Source: Ignavibacteria bacterium
Lineage (GTDB): Bacteria; Bacteroidota; Ignavibacteria; Tepidaquicellales; OLB5
DNA length: 34,708 nt
Reading direction: 5' to 3'
NCBI GenBank assembly: GCA_030835005.1
Contig: JAUQWT010000085.1
Span: forward strand, 1 to 34,708
Part shown: piece after piece, positions 1-11,289 of the stretch
How positions within the stretch are numbered: position 1 is the stretch's first letter
Layout: every line of letters begins with the position of its first letter
Made by a program: the position numbers and the translations under genes
Notes under the pieces: model-generated
Told to the model about the DNA's origin: nothing
Seen by the model: only the letters and a program-made list of their open reading frames with translations
Database searches by the model: none

Positions 1-255
1 TTTGAACAGGCAATTTCAGCCGTAGATGCTTTCAGGCATTATCTTAAAACAGAGAAGCTCATAGCAGAAGACCAGAAAACTGCTCAGTATGAATTTCTGA
101 GATGCTTAACGCGCCTTGCTGAGTTTAAACTCAGTGGAGTAGACAAAAAGAACTTACACAACTTGTCAGTTCTGAAAAAAGAAATAATGAACATGAGTGC
201 TAATCCTTTAGGAGCAAAAAACTGGTTAATAGAAAAAGCTGCAGAACTGAAATAG
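1..255 (+). CDS. C-terminal part of a ~480-aa helical paralog (same family as 2251..3687 and 7725..9185); truncated by the window edge
   Basis: Frame 1 is open from base 1 to TAG at 253-255: FEQAISAVDAFRHYLKTEKLIAED...LGAKNWLIEKAAELK. This matches the paralog C-termini YEETRSLIDSFRKTL...GVKFWLEDRIE and FETLLSYLETTRHFY...GLWIAEKIEE. Confidence 0.8.
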   Translation, partial: FEQAISAVDAFRHYLKTEKLIAEDQKTAQYEFLRCLTRLAEFKLSGVDKKNLHNLSVLKKEIMNMSANPLGAKNWLIEKAAELK

Positions 256-264
256 AAGGCAGAA

Positions 265-486
265 TCAATCCGGTATCAGTAATATTTTTTCTTTTGATGC
301 TGCCCCCGAGATCAAATCTATTTGAGATTTAGGAATCTTCAAGTGTTTTGAGATCAGCTCTATCACACGTTCATTGGCTTTTCCTTTTTCAGGCGGGACA
401 GATACTCGGATCTCGTAATAATTCTTCTCAATTTCTTTTATTGAATTTTCCCGTGAATTAGGTTTCACTTTTACTTTAATCTTCAA
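265..486 (-). CDS. DUF167/YggU-family protein
   Basis: KIKVKVKPNSR...IRVSVPPEKGKANERVIELISKHLKIPKSQIDLISGAASKEK is the typical DUF167 pattern. The TTG at 486 is preferred over the ORF-track start at 525. Confidence 0.85.
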   Translation of the reverse strand: MKIKVKVKPNSRENSIKEIEKNYYEIRVSVPPEKGKANERVIELISKHLKIPKSQIDLISGAASKEKILLIPD

Positions 487-547
487 ATGGTCTTTTCTCT
501 TTTTTTCATTTCGGATTTCAAACAAATATTAGTTCATTAATCTGAAT

Positions 548-569
548 AAAAAAGGAGCTAATTAGCTCC
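548..569 (-). terminator. Intrinsic terminator, GGAGC-N6-GCTCC family copy 1
   Basis: AAAAAA-GGAGCTAATTAGCTCC; hairpin followed by a U-tract on the - strand, downstream of the gene ending at 650. Confidence 0.7.
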
Positions 570-575
570 ATAAAC

Positions 576-610
576 TGTTCATCCGATGACTTGAAGTCAT
601 CGGATGAACA
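576..610. repeat. 35-bp palindrome, REP-like
   Basis: TGTTCATCCGATGACTT-G-AAGTCATCGGATGAACA with perfect 17-bp arms; the core GATGACTTnAAGTCATC recurs at 9227..9243. Confidence 0.75.
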
Positions 611-649
611 TGAAGTCCCCTGAAATGTATGCTGCGGAAAATGAAGTAT

Positions 650-1823
650 TTACTTCACCAGCAGCACCTTCTTTGAATCGGAATATTCGCCAGCTGTGAT
701 ACGGTAAAAAAACACCCCCTTGAATATTTTGATGCATCCCAATCTGCATAATATGATCCGGCAGACATGGATTGATTTACCAGTGTTTCAATTTCACGGC
801 CGGTTACATCATGTACAACCAATTTAATAAAACTGCCTTTGGAACAGAGAATTCTATGTTTGTTTTTGGATTGAACGGATTTGGATAATTTTGTGAAAGC
901 GAAAAAGCATTTGGAACCTCAGTTGATACTTGAGATATTCCAACAAACTTGCTAAGAGGTCTTTTGAATCCTCCACGATTACCGCCTATTGTACCACCTG
1001 CATATAAATAATTATTAAACAGACACATTGAATACATAATCGGAGTCCCGCCAAATCCTTCGTTTTTTTGTATCCATGTCGTGCCATAGTCATTTGACAA
1101 ATAAATTCCCTGGCTTGTTGCTGCAAAGAGATTATCGCCATAAACCAAAAGATCGTTTATTGTTTGATTGTTAAAAGAAGTCTGTGCCCAGTTAAGTCCG
1201 TTATTAGTTGATTTATATACACCATAAACCGCCATTCCAGCAAATATATTATTTCCAATAGCTGCTAGAGAGTATGGTGTCCTGATATTTAAGGATGTTT
1301 GCGTCCAGTTAAAACTATTATCTGTTGATTTATATACGCCGTGCTGCGACCCCATTCCGGCAAAAATAATACCACCGCGGCGAGCAAACAATGTACCTCG
1401 TAGTTGATATTAAAAGTCCGGGTCCAATTAGTCCCGTTATTTGTTGATAAATATATTCCATACGTACCGCCTGCTAATACATTATTCCCCAAGAATATTA
1501 TGTCGTCCATAACACTAGTTAGCGAAGTCAGTGACCAATTTAACCCGCCATTTGTTGATAGAAATACTCCAGTATTTGTTCCTGCAAAAAAAAGAACTTC
1601 CGTTTCCATTTATCACATGTACAGTTTGGTTGATCAAAGAAGTTTGAGACCAGTTAGTGCCATTGTTAGTTAAAATGTACAATCCGGTTATACCCGTTCC
1701 TGCAAAAATATTGCTCCCGTAGCCGAAAAGTACCGGTGGTTCGTTGTAAAACACCTGCTGCCATTGTGCTTCCGCCGAGAAAACAGATAAAGATGTTAAT
1801 ATTAAAATTAGAAGTTTTTTCAT
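650..1823 (-). pseudogene. Frameshifted T9SS cargo: signal peptide, BNR/Asp-box-like beta-propeller repeats, T9SS type A C-terminal domain
   Basis: ORF pieces 1515..1823, 1289..1609 and 804..1391 join into one protein with STNNGxNW repeats. Two further shifts give LSQNYPNPFNPKTNIEFSVPK-GSFIKLVVHDVTGREIETLVNQSMSAGSYYADWDASKYS-GVFFYRITAGEYSDSKKVLLVK, stop at 650-652. Shifts lie near 1590 (A8 run), 1378, 838 and 717 (C5 run). Confidence 0.85.
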
Positions 1824-1872
1824 TGTTAGATATAGTAAAATTTAACTGAGAATTGTTGTTTCATAAAATATA

Positions 1873-1950
1873 ATCCCCCAAAAACCATACTTTTGCTGAG
1901 TTTCGCAGCTATACGATGCTCAAAGAATACATATGGAATAATTGGGGGAT
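1873..1950 (-). promoter_or_regulatory. Long imperfect hairpin in the 5' leader of the T9SS cargo gene
   Basis: Nested stems on the - strand: ATCCCCCAA/TTGGGGGAT, CCATAT/GTATGG, TTGAG/CTCAG, TCGTA-TAGC-TGCGA. Three positions pair as G-U only on the - strand. Confidence 0.55.
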
Positions 1951-2065
1951 ACTTTTAGTGATAACTGTGAATCTTTCTTGAGAATCATATAGCCTATTGT
2001 AAACATAGTTCTCGAATGCAGCTTTTCAAAAGAGAAATTATTTGGTTTTAGAAAATTTTGAAGCG

Positions 2066-2073
2066 CAAACATA
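2066..2073 (-). promoter_or_regulatory. Bacteroidota-type -7 promoter element (TAnnTTTG)
   Basis: TATGTTTG on the - strand, upstream of the leader hairpin and cargo gene. Confidence 0.5.
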
Positions 2074-2250
2074 AAGAATTACTTATTTTTAGCTTGTTTT
2101 AAGCATTAAATATGTTAAAATTTTAGAGAAATTTCTTAAAACATTCAGGGAAATCATTAAACCTGCAAGAACCTATTAATTTTCAAGCATCTCTGATTGT
2201 CATTTCTGGTATCTATTTATACTAATAAAATTCTATTTACTTTAGAACAT

Positions 2251-3687
2251 TTGCAGAACACTAAGCTGGTAAAATTATTGAAGACTTTCTCCGGTCCTGA
2301 AATAAAAAAATTCAGGGAATTTGTTATTTCCCCTTATTTCAATAAGAATAAAAATGTGATCAGGTTAAATGATGTATTATTGAAATTTCATCCCGATTTT
2401 GATGCTAAATCCTTTACTGAAGAGAATATATATTCGGAAGTTTTTGGCAAGGGTAAGTTTGAGTACTTCAAAATAAAAAATATCTCATCAGATCTTTATA
2501 ACCTGGGGCTTGAGTATCTGAAATTAAAGCCTAATCCCTCCACTTTCTTTATGAACGATTACAATCTTATGGTGCAGCTTCGCAAGCGTAAGCTGTTTAA
2601 CCTTCATAAGAAACTGGTGAGATCAATGGAGGAAAACTTCAGGAATACAGAAGTAAAAGATAGTCCGTTTCTATACAGCAATTACCTTTTGACGGCAGAG
2701 AGCCAGCTTGTTGACCTTTTTGAAGAGCCCAGCAGTATCACCGGAATTTTGAGCGAGTTTGAAAGTTTTTTTGAATTCCTTATCTATCACTTACTGCAAT
2801 TTTATAACCTGATGATTCATATTGGCAAAGAAAACAATGTGAAAATAGATATAAAGATGATGGATGAAGTAGTAAGCTACCTCGAAAAGGGGCCCGTCAG
2901 CAAACATCCTACAACTGTGTCATACCAGTATCTGATATTACTGAAAACAAAAGAAAAAGAAGAATATTATTTTACTTTGAAGGAGCATTATTTCAATCAT
3001 TTTTCTGAAATGGATGCATCAGCTGCCTATAGGGCACACATGTATCTGTTTGGATATTGCGCCGATATGTATAATTTTAAGGGAGATCGCAGATTTGTAA
3101 TTGAATGTTATGAATTATATAAACATTCGTATTTAAATAACAGAGTGACATCGGGTGAATTGTTATATCCTGACTTTGTAAATTTCATAAAAGTCTTTGT
3201 GAGAGCAGGTGATACTGCTCTTGCCAGGAAATTCATAATCGACTTCACTGAAAAACTTCCCGAAGACCAGCTTGATAATTGTGTTAATTTCTCAAATGCA
3301 TATATTGCTCATTCTGAAGGTGATCTGAATAAAGCCCTGGCGTGTATTTCTAAAGTATGCTTCCCGTTGGCAATACTTAAAGTCCAGGTAAAGATCATGC
3401 AGGTTCAGTTAAACTATGAACTTGGTTTTTATGAAGAGACTAGAAGCTTAATCGATTCTTTTAGAAAAACACTTTTGAAAGAAGCGGTTATATCTGAAGA
3501 TTATAAAAACTCGATACTGAACTTCATGAAACTTACGATAAACTTGATCAACATAAAACAGGAAACAAGCAGAAAAATACAAGAATTCGAAATACATAAA
3601 TTGACTGAAACAATAAACAAAACACAGTCAAATCACTTTGGTGTCAAGTTTTGGCTGGAAGATCGAATTGAAAGTTTTAACCAATAA
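2251..3687 (+). CDS. Uncharacterised ~480-aa all-helical protein (putative N-terminal wHTH-like domain plus TPR-like repeats)
   Basis: Long ORF 2197..3687. The TTG at 2251 aligns with the start of paralog 7725 (NTKLVKLLKTFS vs NLKLINILRTFS; FVISPYFN vs FISSPFHN). No signal peptide or transmembrane segment seen. Confidence 0.85.
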   Translation: MQNTKLVKLLKTFSGPEIKKFREFVISPYFNKNKNVIRLNDVLLKFHPDFDAKSFTEENIYSEVFGKGKFEYFKIKNISSDLYNLGLEYLKLKPNPSTFFMNDYNLMVQLRKRKLFNLHKKLVRSMEENFRNTEVKDSPFLYSNYLLTAESQLVDLFEEPSSITGILSEFESFFEFLIYHLLQFYNLMIHIGKENNVKIDIKMMDEVVSYLEKGPVSKHPTTVSYQYLILLKTKEKEEYYFTLKEHYFNHFSEMDASAAYRAHMYLFGYCADMYNFKGDRRFVIECYELYKHSYLNNRVTSGELLYPDFVNFIKVFVRAGDTALARKFIIDFTEKLPEDQLDNCVNFSNAYIAHSEGDLNKALACISKVCFPLAILKVQVKIMQVQLNYELGFYEETRSLIDSFRKTLLKEAVISEDYKNSILNFMKLTINLINIKQETSRKIQEFEIHKLTETINKTQSNHFGVKFWLEDRIESFNQ

Positions 3688-3719
3688 CTCATCCGGTGAC
3701 CTTAGCTACCGGATGAGTT
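3686..3719. repeat. REP-like palindrome or bidirectional terminator between convergent genes
   Basis: AACTCATCCGGT-N10-ACCGGATGAGTT; related to the TCATCCG...CGGATGA arms at 576..610. Confidence 0.65.
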
Positions 3720-3730
3720 GAACACACTAT

Positions 3731-5356
3731 TTATTTTACGAGCACCATCTTGTTTACTTCATTGAAATCACCAGCTTCGATCTTATAGAAATAAACACCG
3801 CTTGAAAGTGCGGTGGCATCAAACCTGAAATCATAAGAACCCGGGCCCAGGTATTCGTTGACCAACACGCTTACTATCCTGCCTATAGGATCATACACTA
3901 CAAGCTTCGTAAAGGAGCCTAAAGGAAGATCAAATTTAATTTTTGTTGCCGGGTTGAACGGATTTGGATAATTATTGTATAAACGATACTTTTCCGGGAC
4001 GCCTGATAAAGACGGTTCAATTCCGGTAGTTGTGGAATACTTGACTGTAGCAAAATCACTTGAACTTCCGCTTCCCTGGCTGTTTCCTGTTACAATTGCG
4101 TTACCGGAATTATCAACGCAGATAGATAATGCTGCATCAACTCCGTTACCCGGACCGTTGTATCTTTGCTCCCACAACTGCTGGCCACCTGCATTATATT
4201 TTAAAGTTAGATAGTCCAGGTTTGAACCCCCGGAATTACTTGCACCTGTAATAAATGCATTTCCATTCCCATCAACTGCAACAGAAGTGGCATCATCTGA
4301 AGTATTGTTTGGCCCGTTATATCTCATTACCCATTGCTGAACACCGGAAGAATTATAATAAACTGTTGCATAATCAGTGGCAGACCCCTGTCCTATACTT
4401 GAACCCGTTACATAAACATTATAAACTGAAGTAACTGCAAGCCCGAATGCAACATCGTTATCATTACCTGTTCCGTTATATCTTGAATTCCATTGTTCCT
4501 GACCGGAAGAATTGAATTTTATGGTAACATAATCATTAGATGAACCGCTGCCGCTGCTGCCCCCCGTTATATAAATATTACCAAGCGCGTCCAACGCAAG
4601 ATCAGAAGGAACGTCATCGCCGTTATTCGTTCCGTTATACCTGATAGTCCATTGTTCCTGCCCGGAAGAGTTATATTTGATTGTAAGGTAATCCAGTCCG
4701 CTGCCGCTGCCCGTGCTGCTTCCGGTTATGTATACATTTCCTGCTATATCTACTTTTACTACAGCTGCATTATCAATGCTGTTTTGAGGGCCGTTATATC
4801 TTGAAGCCCACTGCTGCTGACCGGAGGAATTATACTTTACCGTTGCATAGTCATAATTTGTTACACTAAGGCTTTGTCCTGTCACATAAACGTTACCAGC
4901 GGCATCAACTGAAACAGAAAAAGCCTCATCAGTTCCGTTAGAAGGTCCATTATATCTTGCAACCCATTGCTCTTGACCGCTGCTGTTGTATTTAATGGTT
5001 GCATAATCACTAAATGAAGTTGTGCCCGTACTTATACCTGTAACATAAACATTTCCGGCTGCATCAACAGTAATGGCATTTGCAGCATCAATAAAATTCG
5101 CCGGACCATTGTATCTGGCCGACCATTGTTCCTGTCCCGCCGAGTTATATTTTACTGTTGCATAGTCAAGGTTCGAGCCATTCCCGATACTGCTTCCTGT
5201 TACGTAAACATTTCCGCCTGCATCACAAACTACTGCAAATGCTTCATCTAAACTATTACCCGGACCGTTATATCTGGAAACCCATTGTCCAAAAACCGGG
5301 ATGCTTAGTACATTTAGTACTAATAGTAATTTAAGTGTAAAAAAAAATTGTTTCAT
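3731..5356 (-). CDS. T9SS cargo with seven ~60-aa SBBP-type beta-propeller repeats and a T9SS type A sorting domain
   Basis: Signal peptide; seven repeats of RYNGP-x4-D-x6-D-xxGNVYVTG-x8-DYxTxKYNSxGQxQW; C-terminal NYPNPFNPATKIKF...GVYFYKIEAGDFNEVNKMVLVK. Confidence 0.92.
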   Translation of the reverse strand: MKQFFFTLKLLLVLNVLSIPVFGQWVSRYNGPGNSLDEAFAVVCDAGGNVYVTGSSIGNGSNLDYATVKYNSAGQEQWSARYNGPANFIDAANAITVDAAGNVYVTGISTGTTSFSDYATIKYNSSGQEQWVARYNGPSNGTDEAFSVSVDAAGNVYVTGQSLSVTNYDYATVKYNSSGQQQWASRYNGPQNSIDNAAVVKVDIAGNVYITGSSTGSGSGLDYLTIKYNSSGQEQWTIRYNGTNNGDDVPSDLALDALGNIYITGGSSGSGSSNDYVTIKFNSSGQEQWNSRYNGTGNDNDVAFGLAVTSVYNVYVTGSSIGQGSATDYATVYYNSSGVQQWVMRYNGPNNTSDDATSVAVDGNGNAFITGASNSGGSNLDYLTLKYNAGGQQLWEQRYNGPGNGVDAALSICVDNSGNAIVTGNSQGSGSSSDFATVKYSTTTGIEPSLSGVPEKYRLYNNYPNPFNPATKIKFDLPLGSFTKLVVYDPIGRIVSVLVNEYLGPGSYDFRFDATALSSGVYFYKIEAGDFNEVNKMVLVK

Positions 5357-5448
5357 AATGCCCTACTTTCTATTTTTTGACTTTCATAATCTTTCATTTT
5401 CTTAGTTAATTGATGTTGAATTATGACTTTTATATGTATTGTTTAAAA

Positions 5449-5456
5449 CAAAAATA
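5449..5456 (-). promoter_or_regulatory. Bacteroidota-type -7 promoter element
   Basis: TATTTTTG on the - strand, ~90 nt upstream of the start at 5356; low complexity, so it could be chance. Confidence 0.4.
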
Positions 5457-5734
5457 CCCTAAACTAAATCTAATTAAGTCATCACGAAGGATGAAAACAG
5501 AACTACCCCTTAAGAACTACGGTATGAACTAAAGGATCACCTAAAAAAATAATTGGACCCTGTATGATTCTAAAAGAATTTCATTCCCTTAGAGTAAATT
5601 AAATTCAATTTCCGTGCCATACTTAATTGATTAGAAAATAGGAGTTTTGTTTTGTTAACTTCTGTCAAAGAATACCTGTATCAATGACATTAGTGACAAT
5701 GAGATTTTATTATTAATGATGAATGGTTTGTTAA

Positions 5735-5850
5735 GTGAAAGAGTCTCTTGGGATTTTTAAATATGTTGAACTAAAGACCGGCAAACAGCTAAGGGCAAAG
5801 AACTGGCTGACAAACAGATCAAACAAGCAACTAAAAAAGGAGCCAATTAG
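5735..5850 (+). pseudogene. Probable decayed C-terminal remnant of a fourth helical paralog
   Basis: Reads KYVELKTGKQLRAKNWLTN and, after one shift, IKQATKKGAN*. Compare GAKNWLIEKAAELK* (1..255) and LWIAEKIEEMQKGAI* (7725..9185). Confidence 0.4.
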
Positions 5851-5859
5851 CTCCTTTTT
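5833..5859. terminator. Bidirectional terminator, GGAGC family copy 2
   Basis: AAAAAA-GGAGCCAATTAGCTCC-TTTTT, downstream of the gene ending at 5884. Confidence 0.75.
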
Positions 5860-5883
5860 GTACAGCGCTATGTATTCCCCGTT

Positions 5884-6504
5884 TTATATTCCAAATTTTA
5901 TACCCGCAGTAAATCTGAAACCATTGTTTTTTACGTTTGTTGAATTTTTAAGTATGTTTGAAAACCCGAGTGAATAACCGATGCCTGTAAAAATATCAGT
6001 TCTATCTGCAACTTTAAATTCCATGCCGCTACCCAAATAGAGCCCGAAATCAATCGATTCATAAGAAGTAGAAACATCGCTTTCCTGAAAATTAACTCCA
6101 TCGGTTGCTTCTTCGTTTGCCGATAGCTGTACACCAAGAGTCGGTCCCAGTTCAAAATATGGTTTTACTTGGTTTAAAGGAAGATTTACATTGACCAGCA
6201 TTGGAAATTCAATGTAACTGAGATTTTCTGTGAAGGTAATACCGTTATTGTTTCTGATCTCAAAACCTTTCATGATATATCTTATCGCAGGTTTTATTGA
6301 TACATTTTTAGAAACACCAATATCTACAAACCCGCCTACCATAAACCCGGTTTTTGAACCTGTGTTAAAGCTGGGTTTGATATTGGCATTTGCAAGGTTT
6401 AAACCGCCTTCTAAACCTATGGCTACCTGACGTTGTGAAAAAGAAGCAGAAGTAAATATGAATACTGTGAAAATTAATGTTAAAATGGTTACTAAATTTT
6501 TCAT
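5884..6504 (-). CDS. Outer-membrane beta-barrel (porin-family / OMP_b-brl_2-like) protein
   Basis: Signal peptide, GLEGGLNLAN, YIMKG, LSYIEFP, PYFELGP, and C-terminal strand FRFTAGIKFGI. Confidence 0.85.
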   Translation of the reverse strand: MKNLVTILTLIFTVFIFTSASFSQRQVAIGLEGGLNLANANIKPSFNTGSKTGFMVGGFVDIGVSKNVSIKPAIRYIMKGFEIRNNNGITFTENLSYIEFPMLVNVNLPLNQVKPYFELGPTLGVQLSANEEATDGVNFQESDVSTSYESIDFGLYLGSGMEFKVADRTDIFTGIGYSLGFSNILKNSTNVKNNGFRFTAGIKFGI

Positions 6505-6555
6505 CTTTTTTTCTTTCTGTTTTAAGTTATCTATTATAATGTTTTTTAGATTTTT

Positions 6556-6960
6556 TTATTGTACTGTGTAGTTTGATGTAACGCTGTAATTTGAATTTGG
6601 ATGGCCCGGCACTGTGCCTGTGAAATCAAAATTCCACTGCTGCCCGTTTTGCACACCTACATAATTATTTATGATGTATGTTGTATCCTTGCTGTAAACA
6701 TATGCAGTATTTGTAAAGCTTAATGTATCTGCAAACTGTTCAGGACTGTACCTTGATATGATACGCGATATATTTACATCAACACCGGGTCTGAAAAGAA
6801 ACTGTGTACTGCCGGTTTGAGTAATCCGCTGTGATACCTGAAATGAAACCTGCTGATTTAGGTTAGATCCCGTTACACTATCTATCTTGCTGCAACCTGT
6901 AATAATCAGGTAAACCAGCATCAACCCTCCTAAAAATAGTTTAATAATTCCGCGTTTCAT
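6556..6960 (-). CDS. Hypothetical lipoprotein, beta-rich
   Basis: Basic N-terminus, hydrophobic stretch and lipobox ITG-C; co-oriented within the cluster. Confidence 0.8.
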   Translation of the reverse strand: MKRGIIKLFLGGLMLVYLIITGCSKIDSVTGSNLNQQVSFQVSQRITQTGSTQFLFRPGVDVNISRIISRYSPEQFADTLSFTNTAYVYSKDTTYIINNYVGVQNGQQWNFDFTGTVPGHPNSNYSVTSNYTVQ

Positions 6961-7004
6961 TTTGTTTTTTTCCTTTCTTTGTTATATGATTATTGATTGT
7001 TAAA

Positions 7005-7349
7005 TTAATTCTTTTCAAAAACTAAACCTGATATATACGACTCCCAATCCGGCACAGAAGCAATTTCATTTATAACAGTTACAGAATCCGCTGTAAACGT
7101 GTAGTCTGAATTGTTCATCACATATTTTCCGTTTGAACCCATACCGTATTTATTTACAACATGCCATATTCTTGAATCACCGCTTGGCTTATAATAAAAT
7201 GCAGATATCCCTTCCACTTGTTCTAAGTCAACCACAGACTTTCTCTCAAGACTGTTGTTTTCACTTTTTTTAAGAGAAAAACCGGTTATTAATGCTGCGA
7301 TAACTATTGAGGCAAGAATCACTAACTTTACATACTTAACGATTTTCAT
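7005..7349 (-). CDS. Hypothetical exported or membrane-anchored protein
   Basis: N-terminal hydrophobic segment LVILASIVIAALITGFSL; ATGA overlap with the upstream small ORF. Confidence 0.75.
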   Translation of the reverse strand: MKIVKYVKLVILASIVIAALITGFSLKKSENNSLERKSVVDLEQVEGISAFYYKPSGDSRIWHVVNKYGMGSNGKYVMNNSDYTFTADSVTVINEIASVPDWESYISGLVFEKN

Positions 7350-7573
7350 TTATTTGTATTCCCTTCTTTATTATGATTTTGTTTTGTATTTACACGTTTT
7401 ATATTAGTTTGTTTTTTCTTTTTAAATTTCTTTATATTTTCAGTCTTCTGTATTGGTGTATTTGGAAAGATCTCATTGAAATCTTGATCATAAATTTGGG
7501 CTAATCTGATAATGCTTTGTATTGAAGATTTTCCGAATTTATTCTTGTTACTGGATTTCATTTCCATATTCAA
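7346..7573 (-). CDS. Small Lys/Asn-rich ORF (up to 75 aa; start may be the ATG at 7567 or 7561)
   Basis: Begins just downstream of the TATCTTTG promoter element; its stop overlaps the next start (ATGA); central amphipathic segment SIQSIIRLAQIYDQDFNEIFP. Confidence 0.5.
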   Translation of the reverse strand: MNMEMKSSNKNKFGKSSIQSIIRLAQIYDQDFNEIFPNTPIQKTENIKKFKKKKQTNIKRVNTKQNHNKEGNTNK

Positions 7574-7581
7574 TTCTGCAT

Positions 7582-7613
7582 CAAAGATAGTTTTCGTTTA
7601 TATGCTCGGCAAA
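7582..7613 (-). promoter_or_regulatory. Bacteroidota-type promoter (-33 TTTG, -7 TATCTTTG)
   Basis: TTTG at 7613-7610, 20-nt spacer, TATCTTTG at 7589-7582. Confidence 0.65.
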
Positions 7614-7724
7614 TAATTTATTTCTCGAAACTAATCATGGGATTCCCCCTAAATCACAATAGAAATAGCGATTTTTGGCTTATATTAAAGTTTTTTCGAA
7701 CTTGAGACTAAACAGAACATTTAG

Positions 7725-9185
7725 TTGAATAATCTAAAACTCATTAATATTTTGAGGACTTTTTCGAAAACGGAAATGAAAGATTTCGAAAAGTTCATTT
7801 CTTCTCCATTTCATAACCGGGGCAGAAATTACGTTCCCTTTTTTAACCAGCTTAAAAAATTCTATCCAAAATTTGATGATAACAGGATGACTCCGGAATA
7901 TATTTATTCAAAAATATATCCTGGTAAGAAATACAATAAACAAATTCTCTGGAATATGACTTCATCTATGCTTGCAATGAGTGAGGATTTTTTGATTTAT
8001 GTTTCTTTAAAGAGGAATAAATTCGAAAGAGAGCGCAAAGTTGCAGAAGAATTTCTTGAAAGAAGACTTTCCTCTTATTATAAAAAAAAGCTTAATGAAA
8101 TGGAGTCTGCTCTTGATAGCCTTGGAATAGGCTCAGCATATTTCAGACACAAGGCTGAGCTTGAGGATGGAAGAATGGCATACCACTTTATTGAAGACAC
8201 GCAGCAATTTCTTCCTGAGCTGGTTGATAAAAAAGGTAACTATGTCATCCTGCACTTTATGAGAGAAATTTCTGATATAATTGGCAGTTTGCGTACAAGC
8301 AAGAGTATGTATAATAGGCAGTATGAGGGATCAATCCCGTATAAATTTGTTACAAACCTAAAGCTTGATAAAATAGTGGAATTTGCATATGGGACAAAAT
8401 TTAAGTATGCCGCTGTTCTGGATATATATTATGAAACAATAATGCTATCGCTGGAATACGATAATAAAAAACATTTTTTCAGGCTAAAGGAACTATTCGA
8501 ACAGAATCATCATCTTTTTACAAACGAAGAAAAGCATTTAGTAGCAGCAGAGCTTACAAACTACTGCGTACAGAAAATGAACGAAGGGGACAATTCTTTG
8601 AGGCACGCTAACTTTGAACTTGATAAATTTAAGCTTGAAAATGAAATTGTTTTAATAAGCCGCATGTTGCCAAAACTCACTTTCATGCAGATTCTTGGTA
8701 ATGCTCTGTATTTAAAGGAATTTGAATGGGCCAGGACATTTATTGAAGAGTACGCGCCAAAACTTAAGCCTTCATACCAAAAACCAACAAAAATGCTTTG
8801 CTATGCACACCTGTATTATCTTCAAAAGGATTACGGGAAAGTTCTTGAGTGCCTTAGCAAGGTTGAATTTATAGATATGTTAGATAAAATTTATGTAAAG
8901 ACTCTTTATATAAGAACATATTTTGAGATGAAGGAATTTGAGACTTTGCTCAGCTACCTTGAAACAACCAGGCATTTTTATGAAAAGAACCCATATGTAA
9001 GTAATGTATTAAGAAGTAATAATATAAAATTTATTAGCTGCATGAGCCGCCTCTTATCGGCAATTGAATCAAACGATGATTTTGAAATGGATAGAATATG
9101 GAAATTTGTTAAAGGTGATAAATCTGTTGCGAATGGCTTGTGGATTGCTGAAAAAATAGAAGAAATGCAAAAAGGAGCTATTTAG
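7725..9185 (+). CDS. Uncharacterised 486-aa all-helical protein, paralog of 2251..3687
   Basis: TTG start; shared blocks KLxxxLxTFS-x2-E-x3-F-x2-F-x2-SPxxN, KFxPxFD, E-x-IYS, CxSKVxF and the C-terminal W-x2-E/D motif. Confidence 0.9.
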   Translation: MNNLKLINILRTFSKTEMKDFEKFISSPFHNRGRNYVPFFNQLKKFYPKFDDNRMTPEYIYSKIYPGKKYNKQILWNMTSSMLAMSEDFLIYVSLKRNKFERERKVAEEFLERRLSSYYKKKLNEMESALDSLGIGSAYFRHKAELEDGRMAYHFIEDTQQFLPELVDKKGNYVILHFMREISDIIGSLRTSKSMYNRQYEGSIPYKFVTNLKLDKIVEFAYGTKFKYAAVLDIYYETIMLSLEYDNKKHFFRLKELFEQNHHLFTNEEKHLVAAELTNYCVQKMNEGDNSLRHANFELDKFKLENEIVLISRMLPKLTFMQILGNALYLKEFEWARTFIEEYAPKLKPSYQKPTKMLCYAHLYYLQKDYGKVLECLSKVEFIDMLDKIYVKTLYIRTYFEMKEFETLLSYLETTRHFYEKNPYVSNVLRSNNIKFISCMSRLLSAIESNDDFEMDRIWKFVKGDKSVANGLWIAEKIEEMQKGAI

Positions 9186-9264: not shown

Positions 9265-9522
9265 TTATTTCATTTTATTAACAGCTTTTGTAAGCTTTGA
9301 TTTCTTATTCGCAGCATTGTTTCTGTGAATAATACCCTTAACTGCAGCCCTATCGAGTACTGTAACGGCTTTTTTCAGCTCTTTTTCAGCATCTTCCTTT
9401 TTCTTGGACGTAGTTACATTTTTCAAAGCGGATTTAATTTTAGCTTTAAAGTGTTTATTATATTCAGTCTTCTTAGGTGTCTGTCTTGCTCTTTTTTGCG
9501 CAGATTTATGTCTTAACGGCAT
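9265..9522 (-). CDS. rpsT: 30S ribosomal protein S20
   Basis: KSAQKRARQ...LDRAAVKGIIHRNNAANKKSKL. Confidence 0.97.
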   Translation of the reverse strand: MPLRHKSAQKRARQTPKKTEYNKHFKAKIKSALKNVTTSKKKEDAEKELKKAVTVLDRAAVKGIIHRNNAANKKSKLTKAVNKMK

Positions 9523-9720: not shown

Positions 9721-11289
9721 ATGGAAAAAACCAAGAACAAGATCCTATGGGTTGATGATGAAATTGAGCTTTTGCGCTCCAATATACTATTCCTTGAAGA
9801 TAAGGGCTATTCTGTAGAAAAAGCAACAAATGGTGAAGATGCTGTTGATATGGTGAAAGAAAAAGACTTCGACCTCATTTTCCTGGATGAAATGATGGCA
9901 GGCATGGGAGGACTCAAAACCCTCGCCTCTATTAAGGAGGCGCAGCCAAATGTACCTGTAGTGATGGTCACTAAAAATGAAACCGAAACCCTGATGGAAG
10001 ATGCCATAGGCGCAAAAATCTCAGACTATCTTTTGAAGCCGGTTAATCCAAACCAGATACTTCTTGTCTGCAAAAAATTCCTTGAAGGCAAGCGTATAAA
10101 AAGTGAAACAGTTTCGCGGGATTACATACAGGAACTCAATAAGATCAACATGGCCATGATGGAGCCGCTGGATCATAATGACTGGATTAAAATTAACAGC
10201 GATCTTACCCAGTGGGAAATGGAGCTTGATGAACATCCGGAACTTGGTTTAAAAGATACGGTTCTTGCTACTAGAAAAGAATGTAACGCAGAATTTTGCC
10301 GATTCTTTGAAAGAAATTATGTTGAGTGGATCCACGGCAAAAAAGAAGGCCCTGTTTTTTCCAACGGTATTGTTGAGAAATATGTATTCCCTGAGCTTAG
10401 TACTCACAAATCGGTTTTCTTTTTTGTAATTGACTGCATGAGGCTTGACCAGTGGATGCTTATGGAAAAAATGCTGTATGATTACTTTAAGATAACGAAG
10501 GATTTCCATTACGGCATGATACCTTCGGCAACTCCATATGCAAGGAATGCGATCTTCAGCGGGCTATTCCCAAGTGATATAGAAAAACATTACCCGGAGC
10601 TATTTGCCAAAGGCGAAGATGATGAGAACAGCAAGAACAATTATGAAAAAGAATTCATGCAAAAGCTGATTGACAGAAAAAAAATCAAGCTGAGGAATGA
10701 ATTACGTTATGTAAAGATACTTGATGCAGAATTCGGAAAAGGGATCGAACACAAGATTTCGAGCTTCAGCAATACTCACTTAAATGCAATTGTTGTGAAC
10801 TTTGTTGATATACTTGCGCACAACAGAAGTGATAATGCAGTATTGAAAGAAATTGCTCCGGATGAATCTGCTTACCGTTCACTAACACAGTCATGGTTCG
10901 AGCATTCATCGCTCTTTTCAATGTTCAAAATACTCTCGCAGCAGAAAGATATTAAGATAATTGTAACTACCGATCATGGCAGCATACGATGTATGCGCGG
11001 TGCAAAAGTGCTGGGTGATAGAGAAACATCTACCAATTTGAGATATAAATACGGCAGGAATGTTAAGATTGATGACCGCCAGGCAATATTCATACGCAAT
11101 CCGCATGATTACAAGCTTCCTAAAAGAGGCGGAATAGTGAATTATGTGGTAACAAAGGAAGATTTTTATTTCGTATATCCAACCGATTATCATTATTACC
11201 TGAATCATTACAAGAATACTTTCCAGCACGGCGGTATTTCCATGGAAGAATTGATATTACCCGTGGTAACGCTTGAACCGAAGGTGTAA
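9721..11289 (+). CDS. porX: Response regulator with PglZ/alkaline-phosphatase-like domain (PorX family)
   Basis: Receiver domain ILWVDDEI...FLDEMM...KPVNPNQILL; PglZ motifs IDCMRLDQW, PSATPYARNAIFSG, TTDHG, TFQHGGISMEE; followed by tsaE. Confidence 0.9.
   Translation: MEKTKNKILWVDDEIELLRSNILFLEDKGYSVEKATNGEDAVDMVKEKDFDLIFLDEMMAGMGGLKTLASIKEAQPNVPVVMVTKNETETLMEDAIGAKISDYLLKPVNPNQILLVCKKFLEGKRIKSETVSRDYIQELNKINMAMMEPLDHNDWIKINSDLTQWEMELDEHPELGLKDTVLATRKECNAEFCRFFERNYVEWIHGKKEGPVFSNGIVEKYVFPELSTHKSVFFFVIDCMRLDQWMLMEKMLYDYFKITKDFHYGMIPSATPYARNAIFSGLFPSDIEKHYPELFAKGEDDENSKNNYEKEFMQKLIDRKKIKLRNELRYVKILDAEFGKGIEHKISSFSNTHLNAIVVNFVDILAHNRSDNAVLKEIAPDESAYRSLTQSWFEHSSLFSMFKILSQQKDIKIIVTTDHGSIRCMRGAKVLGDRETSTNLRYKYGRNVKIDDRQAIFIRNPHDYKLPKRGGIVNYVVTKEDFYFVYPTDYHYYLNHYKNTFQHGGISMEELILPVVTLEPKV

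Follow-up and report, generated by a model that had tools for sequence, protein, structure and literature searches.

The stretch of Ignavibacteria DNA considered here (the window: 34,708 nucleotides (nt), contig C294 of a 3.2-Mb, 443-contig metagenome-assembled genome) carries three copies of a large family of helical proteins whose genes tend to stand back to back with genes for secreted proteins, in many cases cargo of the type IX secretion system (T9SS). We think it probable that these proteins are dimeric, locus-specific, one-component transcription activators that also bind their own promoters, a reading to which we are led by the gene layout, paired sites in the upstream regions, a basic N-terminal domain, a predicted dimer and kinship to a regulator that has genetic support. 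The mechanism envisaged would employ a homodimer, composed of a basic N-terminal helical domain and a tetratricopeptide repeat (TPR)-like solenoid serving as sensor, with each family copy recognising a site of its own of about 10 base pairs (bp), present twice as a direct repeat. One copy of the site would lie directly ahead of the -33 element of the divergent neighbour, mostly a T9SS cargo gene or operon, and the other at the promoter or leader of the family gene itself, and upon a cytoplasmic cue the regulator would activate the neighbouring secreted-protein cassette and regulate its own synthesis. DNA binding, activation, autoregulation and ligand sensing are what we infer for the family, and by analogy with RusR, a regulator treated below, its TPR-like body may sense a cytoplasmic metabolite.

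The three copies (Table 1), all on the forward strand, are by sequence comparison diverged paralogs of one large family, as a preliminary description of this DNA had proposed. The nearest named relatives of the window's proteins belong to metagenome-assembled genomes of Ignavibacteria. The two complete ones, designated P0002 and P0003, align over their full length with 23% identity (BLASTP, E 7e-22), and the partial copy at the contig end matches positions 405-482 of a family hidden Markov model (HMM) built from 58 homologs (E 9.2e-15) as well as the C-termini of both complete copies (BLASTP, E 1e-7 and 2e-4). The P0002 reading frame is open from a TTG at 2197, and its homology to the family and its N-terminus start at the TTG at 2251. 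The conserved N-terminal motif noted in the preliminary description recurs in the 58 homologs, all of which have S27 and at least 90% of which keep E17 and N31, and the consensus from 25 paralogs reads KLxxxLKTFxxxExKxFxxFxxSPFFN...YPG. A crude hydrophobicity score, high for the neighbouring gene products, finds no signal peptide in any family copy, which agrees with what had been said of them.

Throughout the 3.2-Mb genome the HMM matches 33 open reading frames (ORFs), 20 of them full-length and 13 partial. One fragment of 181 residues (C60:2900..3445, + strand, HMM positions 1-162) is contig-internal and lies just downstream of a full-length copy. With 13 partial copies among 33 we considered whether the family might break assemblies, and dropped the idea, since about a dozen contig-end cuts are expected by chance (an arithmetic estimate from a family share of about 1.4% of the genome and 886 contig ends). 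Among relatives, the family is present in 29 of 30 (30 of 31 genomes when this one is included), with 1 to 53 matches in each relative that has it and top counts of at least 51; in an evenly drawn sample of the phylum, 26 of 301 genomes have it, and some of the full-length copies belong to other classes. A library clustered at 50% identity contains 12,577 matching clusters at E ≤ 0.001 and 7,532 at E ≤ 1e-30, and the best 150 comprise 146 of 465-523 residues, aligned end to end, and four shorter ones (314-381 residues), with no fused extra domain in any of them. Pfam (above threshold), NCBIfam, PDB sequences and PADLOC gave no match for the family, and P0002 and P0003 had no NCBIfam match even at E ≤ 1. 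Judged by such comparisons, the family repertoire is one that turns over fast; the paralog on contig C368 has no match at E ≤ 1e-100 in 20 congeneric genomes, so that an ortholog footprint is impossible for it.

Genes were called by a heuristic greedy ORF procedure (3013 genes), and T9SS tails were marked by an in-house HMM derived from 188 regex seeds, which labels 247 of the 3013 called genes (8.2%), as compared with only 17 Sigma70_r4_2 and 4 Trans_reg_C matches in the same genome, and whose calls were checked against PF18962 on three genes, that domain being found on the cargo gene at 3731..5356 and on neighbours in two further loci (L069, L070). The immediate upstream neighbour is divergent for 23/27 family genes, compared with 566/2355 background genes (p=4.9e-11), and is both divergent and endowed with a T9SS tail for 11/27, compared with 40/2355 (p=1.4e-12); downstream neighbours with a T9SS tail are also enriched (6/24 versus 119/2321, p=0.0012). 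Three other genomes (20 loci) show a divergent tail neighbour in 13/35 cases by a strict count and in 19/35 if unannotated ORFs shorter than 125 residues are skipped, and there the divergent family gene heads runs of up to five cargo genes. The same layout occurs in other classes of the phylum, where the cargo consists of Big_9 or DUF7619 proteins with a Por_Secre_tail domain. The divergent pairing with secreted-protein genes is not a matter of chance; random neighbour orientation, which as first proposed would have spoken against a regulatory pairing, is refuted by the enrichment of divergent T9SS neighbours and its repetition in three other genomes.

Tight pairing with exported-protein genes could also be read as the mark of a non-regulatory helper, namely a TPR protein of the cytoplasm that serves the adjacent exported protein as its own chaperone or targeting factor, and TPR proteins are commonly chaperones or scaffolds. 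We regard this as very unlikely. T9SS cargo crosses the inner membrane via Sec and is recognised in the periplasm, and a cytoplasmic partner would therefore have no obvious access to it; the divergent layout, in which the two genes are not co-transcribed, is not what one usually finds for a chaperone; the neighbours vary greatly, and those of P0003 are not T9SS cargo at all; and RusR, a relative treated below, works on transcription according to the accessible part of its report.

The upstream regions provide the second line of evidence. Between P0003 and its divergent gene cluster lies a bipartite motif that we take to be a promoter of the Bacteroidetes type, going by the consensus familiar from the Bacteroides literature, and its boxes are invariant blocks in a five-sequence ortholog alignment. 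The same region holds two candidate operator sites, of which site 1 reads ACTAATCAG in 3/4 orthologs (ACTAATCAA in L038) and site 2 likewise ACTAATCAG in 3/4 (ACTAAACAG in L034), and the two closest paralogs of P0003 (on contigs C26 and C113) have AAACTAAYC at the position of site 1. By eye, most family upstream regions contain CAAAnnTA, about 20 nt and CAAAGA, that is, the reverse complement of the divergent gene's TCTTTG, about 20 nt and TAnnTTTG. A weaker TAnnTTAG box stands 15-25 nt ahead of many family start codons, a distance that would suggest very short leaders. Locus-specific direct repeats of 9-12 bp recur in these regions, one just beyond the -33 element and the other 13-50 nt before the family start codon, as exemplified by ATTTGTCGCCA (C368), ATTTGCAAATCA (C60), TGTCGAATG (C373) and TCTTCTCACAG (C202); the C60 repeat, which belongs to the locus of the 181-residue fragment, is perfect over 12 bp, and its first 10 bases are palindromic. 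A clear paired site was not resolved in the intergenic region of P0002 (1824..2250), where the top direct 12-mer pair matches at 10/12 positions.

These repeats were put on a statistical footing in two ways. Pairs of 12-mers with at least 11/12 matches, 40-120 nt apart, were counted upstream of family genes and, as controls, in other divergent intergenic regions: direct pairs occur in 6/27 family regions and 19/398 control regions (p=0.003), and inverted pairs, with no excess in this genome, in 0/27 and 22/398, respectively. With the statistic fixed beforehand, 35 loci from three other genomes again yielded direct pairs (6/35, p=0.010), inverted pairs being not significant in the same loci (4/35). 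The second test compared the distal segment (-150..-70) with the proximal one (-70..-1), taken from the same locus or from mismatched loci, and found matches of at least 11/12 in 9/62 same-locus and 83/3782 mismatched comparisons (binomial p=8e-6) and of at least 10/12 in 22/62 and 682/3782 (p=8e-4), with no excess in inverted orientation (2/62). A distance of 6-12 nt between the -33 element and the start of site 1 is found in 5/6 loci scorable by a strict regex for the divergent promoter, which matched only 21/62 loci, so that this spacing rests on those 5/6 and on inspection by eye.

Site 2 falls in or near the leader of the family gene, and the weaker fold matches of P0003 include designed PPR proteins and ISG54/IFIT2; both would fit an RNA-binding helical-repeat protein of PPR or IFIT kind, acting post-transcriptionally on the mRNA of its neighbour or on its own. 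Site 1, however, is upstream of the neighbour's -33 element wherever the promoter was recognised, and would hence lie outside the neighbour's mRNA, and the PPR and IFIT matches are generic solenoid matches; we give this alternative the least credence of all. Both it and the chaperone-like helper fit the layout less well than does the activator reading.

Kinship to a studied regulator emerges at the level of profiles. The family HMM gives weak matches to proteins of about 520 residues from other Bacteroidota, one of them over HMM positions 6-466 (E 5.5e-6), and this protein matches in full length the NCBIfam model NF058569, 'BT2802 family ribose utilization protein' (E 3.4e-43; 148 bits, the curated cut-off being 550 bits). 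The same model finds eight further ORFs of about 500-546 residues in this genome (E 5.8e-47 to 3.5e-32; contigs C122, C441, C70, C169, C394, C29, C289 and C157), none above the cut-off; the BT2802-like comparison proteins, at 98-220 bits, also remain below it, and a B. thetaiotaomicron control exceeds it. Aligned by hhalign, the family and the eight own-genome BT2802-like paralogs reach a probability of 96.0% (E 4.1e-9, 458 columns), and the family and eleven BT2802-like proteins from eleven genomes 96.8% (E 2.4e-10, 454 columns) at about 13% identity, the match being collinear from an N-terminal LxxL(I/L)K(S/T)(L/F)xKxExxxF motif via the TPR-like body to a C-terminal Trp. Matched directly, NF058569 hits 0/58 family members at E ≤ 0.1; because the homology is thus confined to the profile level, we speak of a superfamily relation, not of membership, and the family appears to be a remote branch of a BT2802/RusR-like superfamily of Bacteroidota. 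The preliminary description had called it undescribed, which holds for the branch, since it matches no curated model, but not for the superfamily, which has a genetically studied member and an NCBIfam model.

With 33 family and eight BT2802-like ORFs, the superfamily would number about 41 members in 3.2 Mb, and 6/8 BT2802-like genes of this genome are likewise divergent to T9SS-tail cargo (p=1e-9). Other sampled genomes contain 1-3 BT2802-like genes each. Four loci (L063-L066, in G068, G280, G093 and G221) hold a highly conserved BT2802-like gene for about 515-520 residues, present in 1-2 copies per sampled genome, with 74-93% identity among the best 120 of 6133 matches and, in L064, adjoining a HAD phosphatase gene; this gene may represent the superfamily in its ancestral state, before expansion. 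As to BT2802 itself, the accessible part of the preprint states that RusR is needed genetically to activate the adjacent rus locus, that a rusR deletion does not grow on ribose and activates rus to only about 10%, and that the protein is one 'with no homology to known PUL regulators', PUL standing for polysaccharide utilization locus (bioRxiv 10.1101/574913), and a later article, in its accessible part, treats BT2803-09 as the RusR regulon (NAR 2025 PMC12596196). RusR and the family are alike in length (about 500-520 and about 485 residues, respectively), in the full-length collinear profile match, and in the position of the gene beside a locus of surface or secreted function thought to be its target. 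They differ in that the neighbours of the family are T9SS cargo or envelope-protein genes and not a ribokinase/SusC/SusD/permease locus, that the family has grown to tens of copies per genome, and that it fails the curated NF058569 cut-off.

Structure prediction points to a dimer with a TPR-like solenoid. The AlphaFold model of P0003 (predicted local distance difference test, pLDDT, 93.2; predicted template modelling score, pTM, 0.83) is all-helical, with 25 helices. Foldseek found no match to the whole model in the PDB at E ≤ 0.001, and VIA-align gave RapI (Z 14.7), Rap of pLS20 (13.4), Rap of phi105 (13.0), OGT (12.9) and NprR (12.6), all over residues ~100-486, and PlcR at Z 10.7, values that by the calibration of the tool fall within the range for helical repeats. 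An Atlas search returned unnamed clusters of the family's own, the nearest named ones being TPR_2 (0.82), AimR (0.76) and Rgg_C (0.75), which serve as leads only. The first 105 residues carry a mean net charge of +5.1, versus +0.7 for the rest of the protein. The protein is probably a symmetric homodimer, going by models with an ipSAE of 0.80, versus 0.02 for the best of three controls, a contact agreement of at least 96% between runs and a partner pLDDT of at least 87; the same mark was reached by 20/30 proteins solved as pairs and by 1/23 solved as single chains. The predicted interface comprises residues 5-30 (with the invariant SP loop), 87-118 and 161-226.

On the matter of DNA binding the evidence also weighs against an activator. 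Folded alone, the N-terminal domain (first 105 residues; pLDDT 89.5) consists of five helices with no beta strands, and its VIA matches, of which about 30 of the 50 best are by our reading DNA-binding domains of sigma region 4, LuxR, OmpR or Fur type, led by sigma-H (3mzy; root-mean-square deviation 2.3 Å, 73 residues aligned), weakly suggest a helix-turn-helix (HTH) fold at Z values of at most 6.3, below the tool's typical value for unrelated models. At E ≤ 0.001 Foldseek found nothing in the PDB for this domain, a PDB profile search returned noise only, hhalign of the domain against 14 sigma region 4 and three OmpR-type domains of the same genome remained below 1% probability, and Pfam and NCBIfam show no known DNA-binding domain in the family. 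The negative sequence searches, together with two further observations, also feed the main rival reading, a Rap-like adaptor that does not bind DNA and whose TPR solenoid modulates a response regulator, a sigma factor or RNA polymerase, tuning the neighbours indirectly: Rap proteins, whose targets are other proteins and not DNA, come out best when folds are matched over the full length, and residues 5-30 of the N-terminal domain, including the invariant SP loop, are buried in the predicted dimer interface. Such an adaptor nevertheless seems unlikely to us, as there is no conserved partner gene beside the family, its neighbours being cargo genes, as the locus-specific direct repeats would be left without a role, as 30-50 diverged copies per genome would demand equally diverse protein targets, and as the Rap scores lie within the helical-repeat range.

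Further points to be set against the activator reading concern the sites and the loci. The paired site is seen, by a crude test, in only about 15% (at least 11/12 matches) to 35% (at least 10/12) of loci, the operator idea was formed on this genome's own loci, and the sites are short and AT-rich. Relatives with 0, 1, 6 or 8 family copies keep at least 127 T9SS-tail matches, and the family is therefore not generally needed for cargo expression; the gene calls and the T9SS C-terminal domain model are moreover our own heuristics. Finally, the support for RusR consists, in the accessible part of the preprint, of genetics and of 'predicted DNA-binding motifs' (bioRxiv 10.1101/574913).

Several known systems invite comparison with dimeric, locus-specific activators of this kind. 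The RRNPP regulators (Rap, NprR, PlcR, Rgg, AimR), to which the preliminary description had likened the family, share with it a TPR solenoid preceded by a small helical domain at the N-terminus, and a homodimer is predicted for the family. This likeness survives in the fold of the TPR part, at the Rap and NprR scores given above, but extends no further, for the family has neither an XRE-type HTH (Pfam) nor sequence similarity to RRNPP proteins, its fold scores stay within helical-repeat noise, and a gene for a secreted peptide was not seen as its general neighbour, the small ORF beside P0003 having no signal peptide (nor a Pfam match); the family is moreover one of Gram-negative Bacteroidota, RRNPP one of Bacillota. 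The other comparison then offered, with the SARP activators such as AfsR, has to be given up. Common to both are the idea of a locus-specific activator and the arrangement of an N-terminal domain with a TPR-like helical domain, and SARPs bind direct repeats near the -35 region. The family, however, has no Trans_reg_C or BTAD match (Pfam, E ≤ 1), hhalign gives less than 1% for an OmpR-type winged HTH, and its N-terminal domain is modelled as all-helical, with no beta strands and no wing; AfsR matches that domain only weakly by VIA (Z 4.6). The earlier proposal of locus-specific regulators of the neighbouring cassettes thus gains from the pairing, the direct repeats, the predicted homodimer and the remote homology to RusR, and loses the SARP comparison and much of the RRNPP one.

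Closest in logic are the PUL-linked regulators of Bacteroidota (SusR, hybrid two-component systems, and extracytoplasmic function sigma and anti-sigma factors), with one dedicated regulator per surface or secreted locus and with numbers that expand with those loci. Their architecture is unrelated to that of the family, which is soluble, lacks a membrane sensor and is paired with T9SS cargo rather than SusC/D. A one-component regulator devoted to the locus next to it is of a known kind; what sets this branch apart is that it is unannotated and very large. It is conceivable, though we would not count on it, that the RusR-like superfamily as a whole possesses a DNA-binding domain of a new type and has radiated in Ignavibacteria into the largest transcription-factor family of the cell, numbering from 30 to over 50 copies, each with its own doubled operator of about 10 bp and a TPR sensor, and each switching on one T9SS cassette.

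The features of the window on which this account draws are collected in Table 1.

Table 1. Family genes, candidate regulatory sites and neighbouring genes in the window
Feature	Position	Strand	Remarks
Family copy 3 (partial)	1..255	+	C-terminal 84 residues; truncated by contig end
T9SS cargo gene, divergent to P0002	~590..1823	-	three-frame translation; end ~590 approximate
Intergenic region of P0002 and cargo gene	1824..2250	.	divergent, common to both
Family copy P0002	2251..3687	+	family HMM E 6.7e-111
T9SS cargo, intact (SBBP beta-propeller repeats and Por_Secre_tail)	3731..5356	-	PF06739 E 1e-25, PF18962 E 9.6e-7
Outer-membrane beta-barrel protein	5884..6504	-	PF13568 E 5e-23; last gene of P0003-divergent cluster
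Putative lipoprotein	6556..6960	-	signal peptide ends in Cys; no Pfam match
Exported or membrane-anchored protein, 114 residues	7005..7349	-	no Pfam match
Small, very basic ORF (MKSSNKNKFGKSS...)	7346..7561	-	first gene of P0003-divergent cluster
Presumed Bacteroidetes-type promoter of P0003-divergent cluster	7582..7615	-	-7 box TATCTTTG 7582..7589; -33-like TATTTG 7610..7615
Candidate operator site 1 (AAACTAATCA)	7628..7637	+	12 nt upstream of divergent promoter's -33-like element; ortholog-conserved block
Candidate operator site 2 (GACTAAACAG)	7706..7715	+	direct repeat of site 1; ends 9 nt before P0003 start codon; ortholog-conserved block
Family copy P0003	7725..9185	+	486 residues; family HMM E 5.7e-195
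P0003 domains (predicted)			basic helical N-terminal domain, residues ~1-100; TPR-like solenoid, residues ~100-486; model pLDDT 93.2

Both complete copies had been described at the outset as sharing a divergent promoter region with exported-protein genes, and so they do, but the propeller cargo gene beside P0002 is frameshifted, and the intact SBBP cargo gene (3731..5356) is convergent with P0002, not divergent. The frameshifted gene encodes a signal peptide, repeats of BNR/DUF6242 kind and, at the C-terminus, a sorting domain, with weak Pfam matches on its pieces; it contains at least four frame changes in the assembly, next to an intact regulator gene, and includes the homopolymers A8 at 1586, A7 at 706 and C5 at 715. 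These frame changes make it either a pseudogene or decaying gene or the victim of indel errors in the assembly. The order of the four genes divergent to P0003 is kept in four orthologous loci, within each 1.1-1.5-kb flank, and the gene for the 114-residue protein is present in 3/4 of them. The small ORF at the head of this cluster likely starts at the ATG at 7561 and not at the TTG at 7573, because its N-terminal ~45 residues are kept in the four orthologous loci and the frame upstream of the ATG is not; its Lys-rich tail differs in length and frame among these loci. Located 0.5 kb downstream of P0003, past a short ORF that by eye resembles ribosomal protein S20 (9265..9522, - strand), is a gene (9721..11289, + strand) for a response-regulator receiver and PglZ protein (PF00072 E 4e-27, PF08665 E 2e-21), the same domain layout as in PorX, which is the response regulator of the T9SS.

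Bacteroidota and Ignavibacteria have T9SS cargo genes by the hundred, and how each of these is controlled is poorly understood; to our knowledge, the regulation described for this system (PorX/PorY, SigP) concerns its machinery only, and our literature searches met with no prior account of a coupling of this family to T9SS cargo and with nothing relevant on divergent regulators of such cargo. If the activator reading is true, one unannotated family, amounting to 1-2% of the genes in some genomes, would explain how a sizeable share of cargo genes is controlled locus by locus, and its annotation would shift from 'hypothetical protein' to a named regulator family. RusR would at the same time gain a superfamily of many thousand clusters (the 12,577 of this branch alone) together with testable operator predictions. 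Should the more far-reaching view of a superfamily with a new type of DNA-binding domain also prove true, the family would parallel, on the side of secretion, the one-regulator-per-PUL logic and would furnish a natural set of orthogonal regulator-operator pairs.

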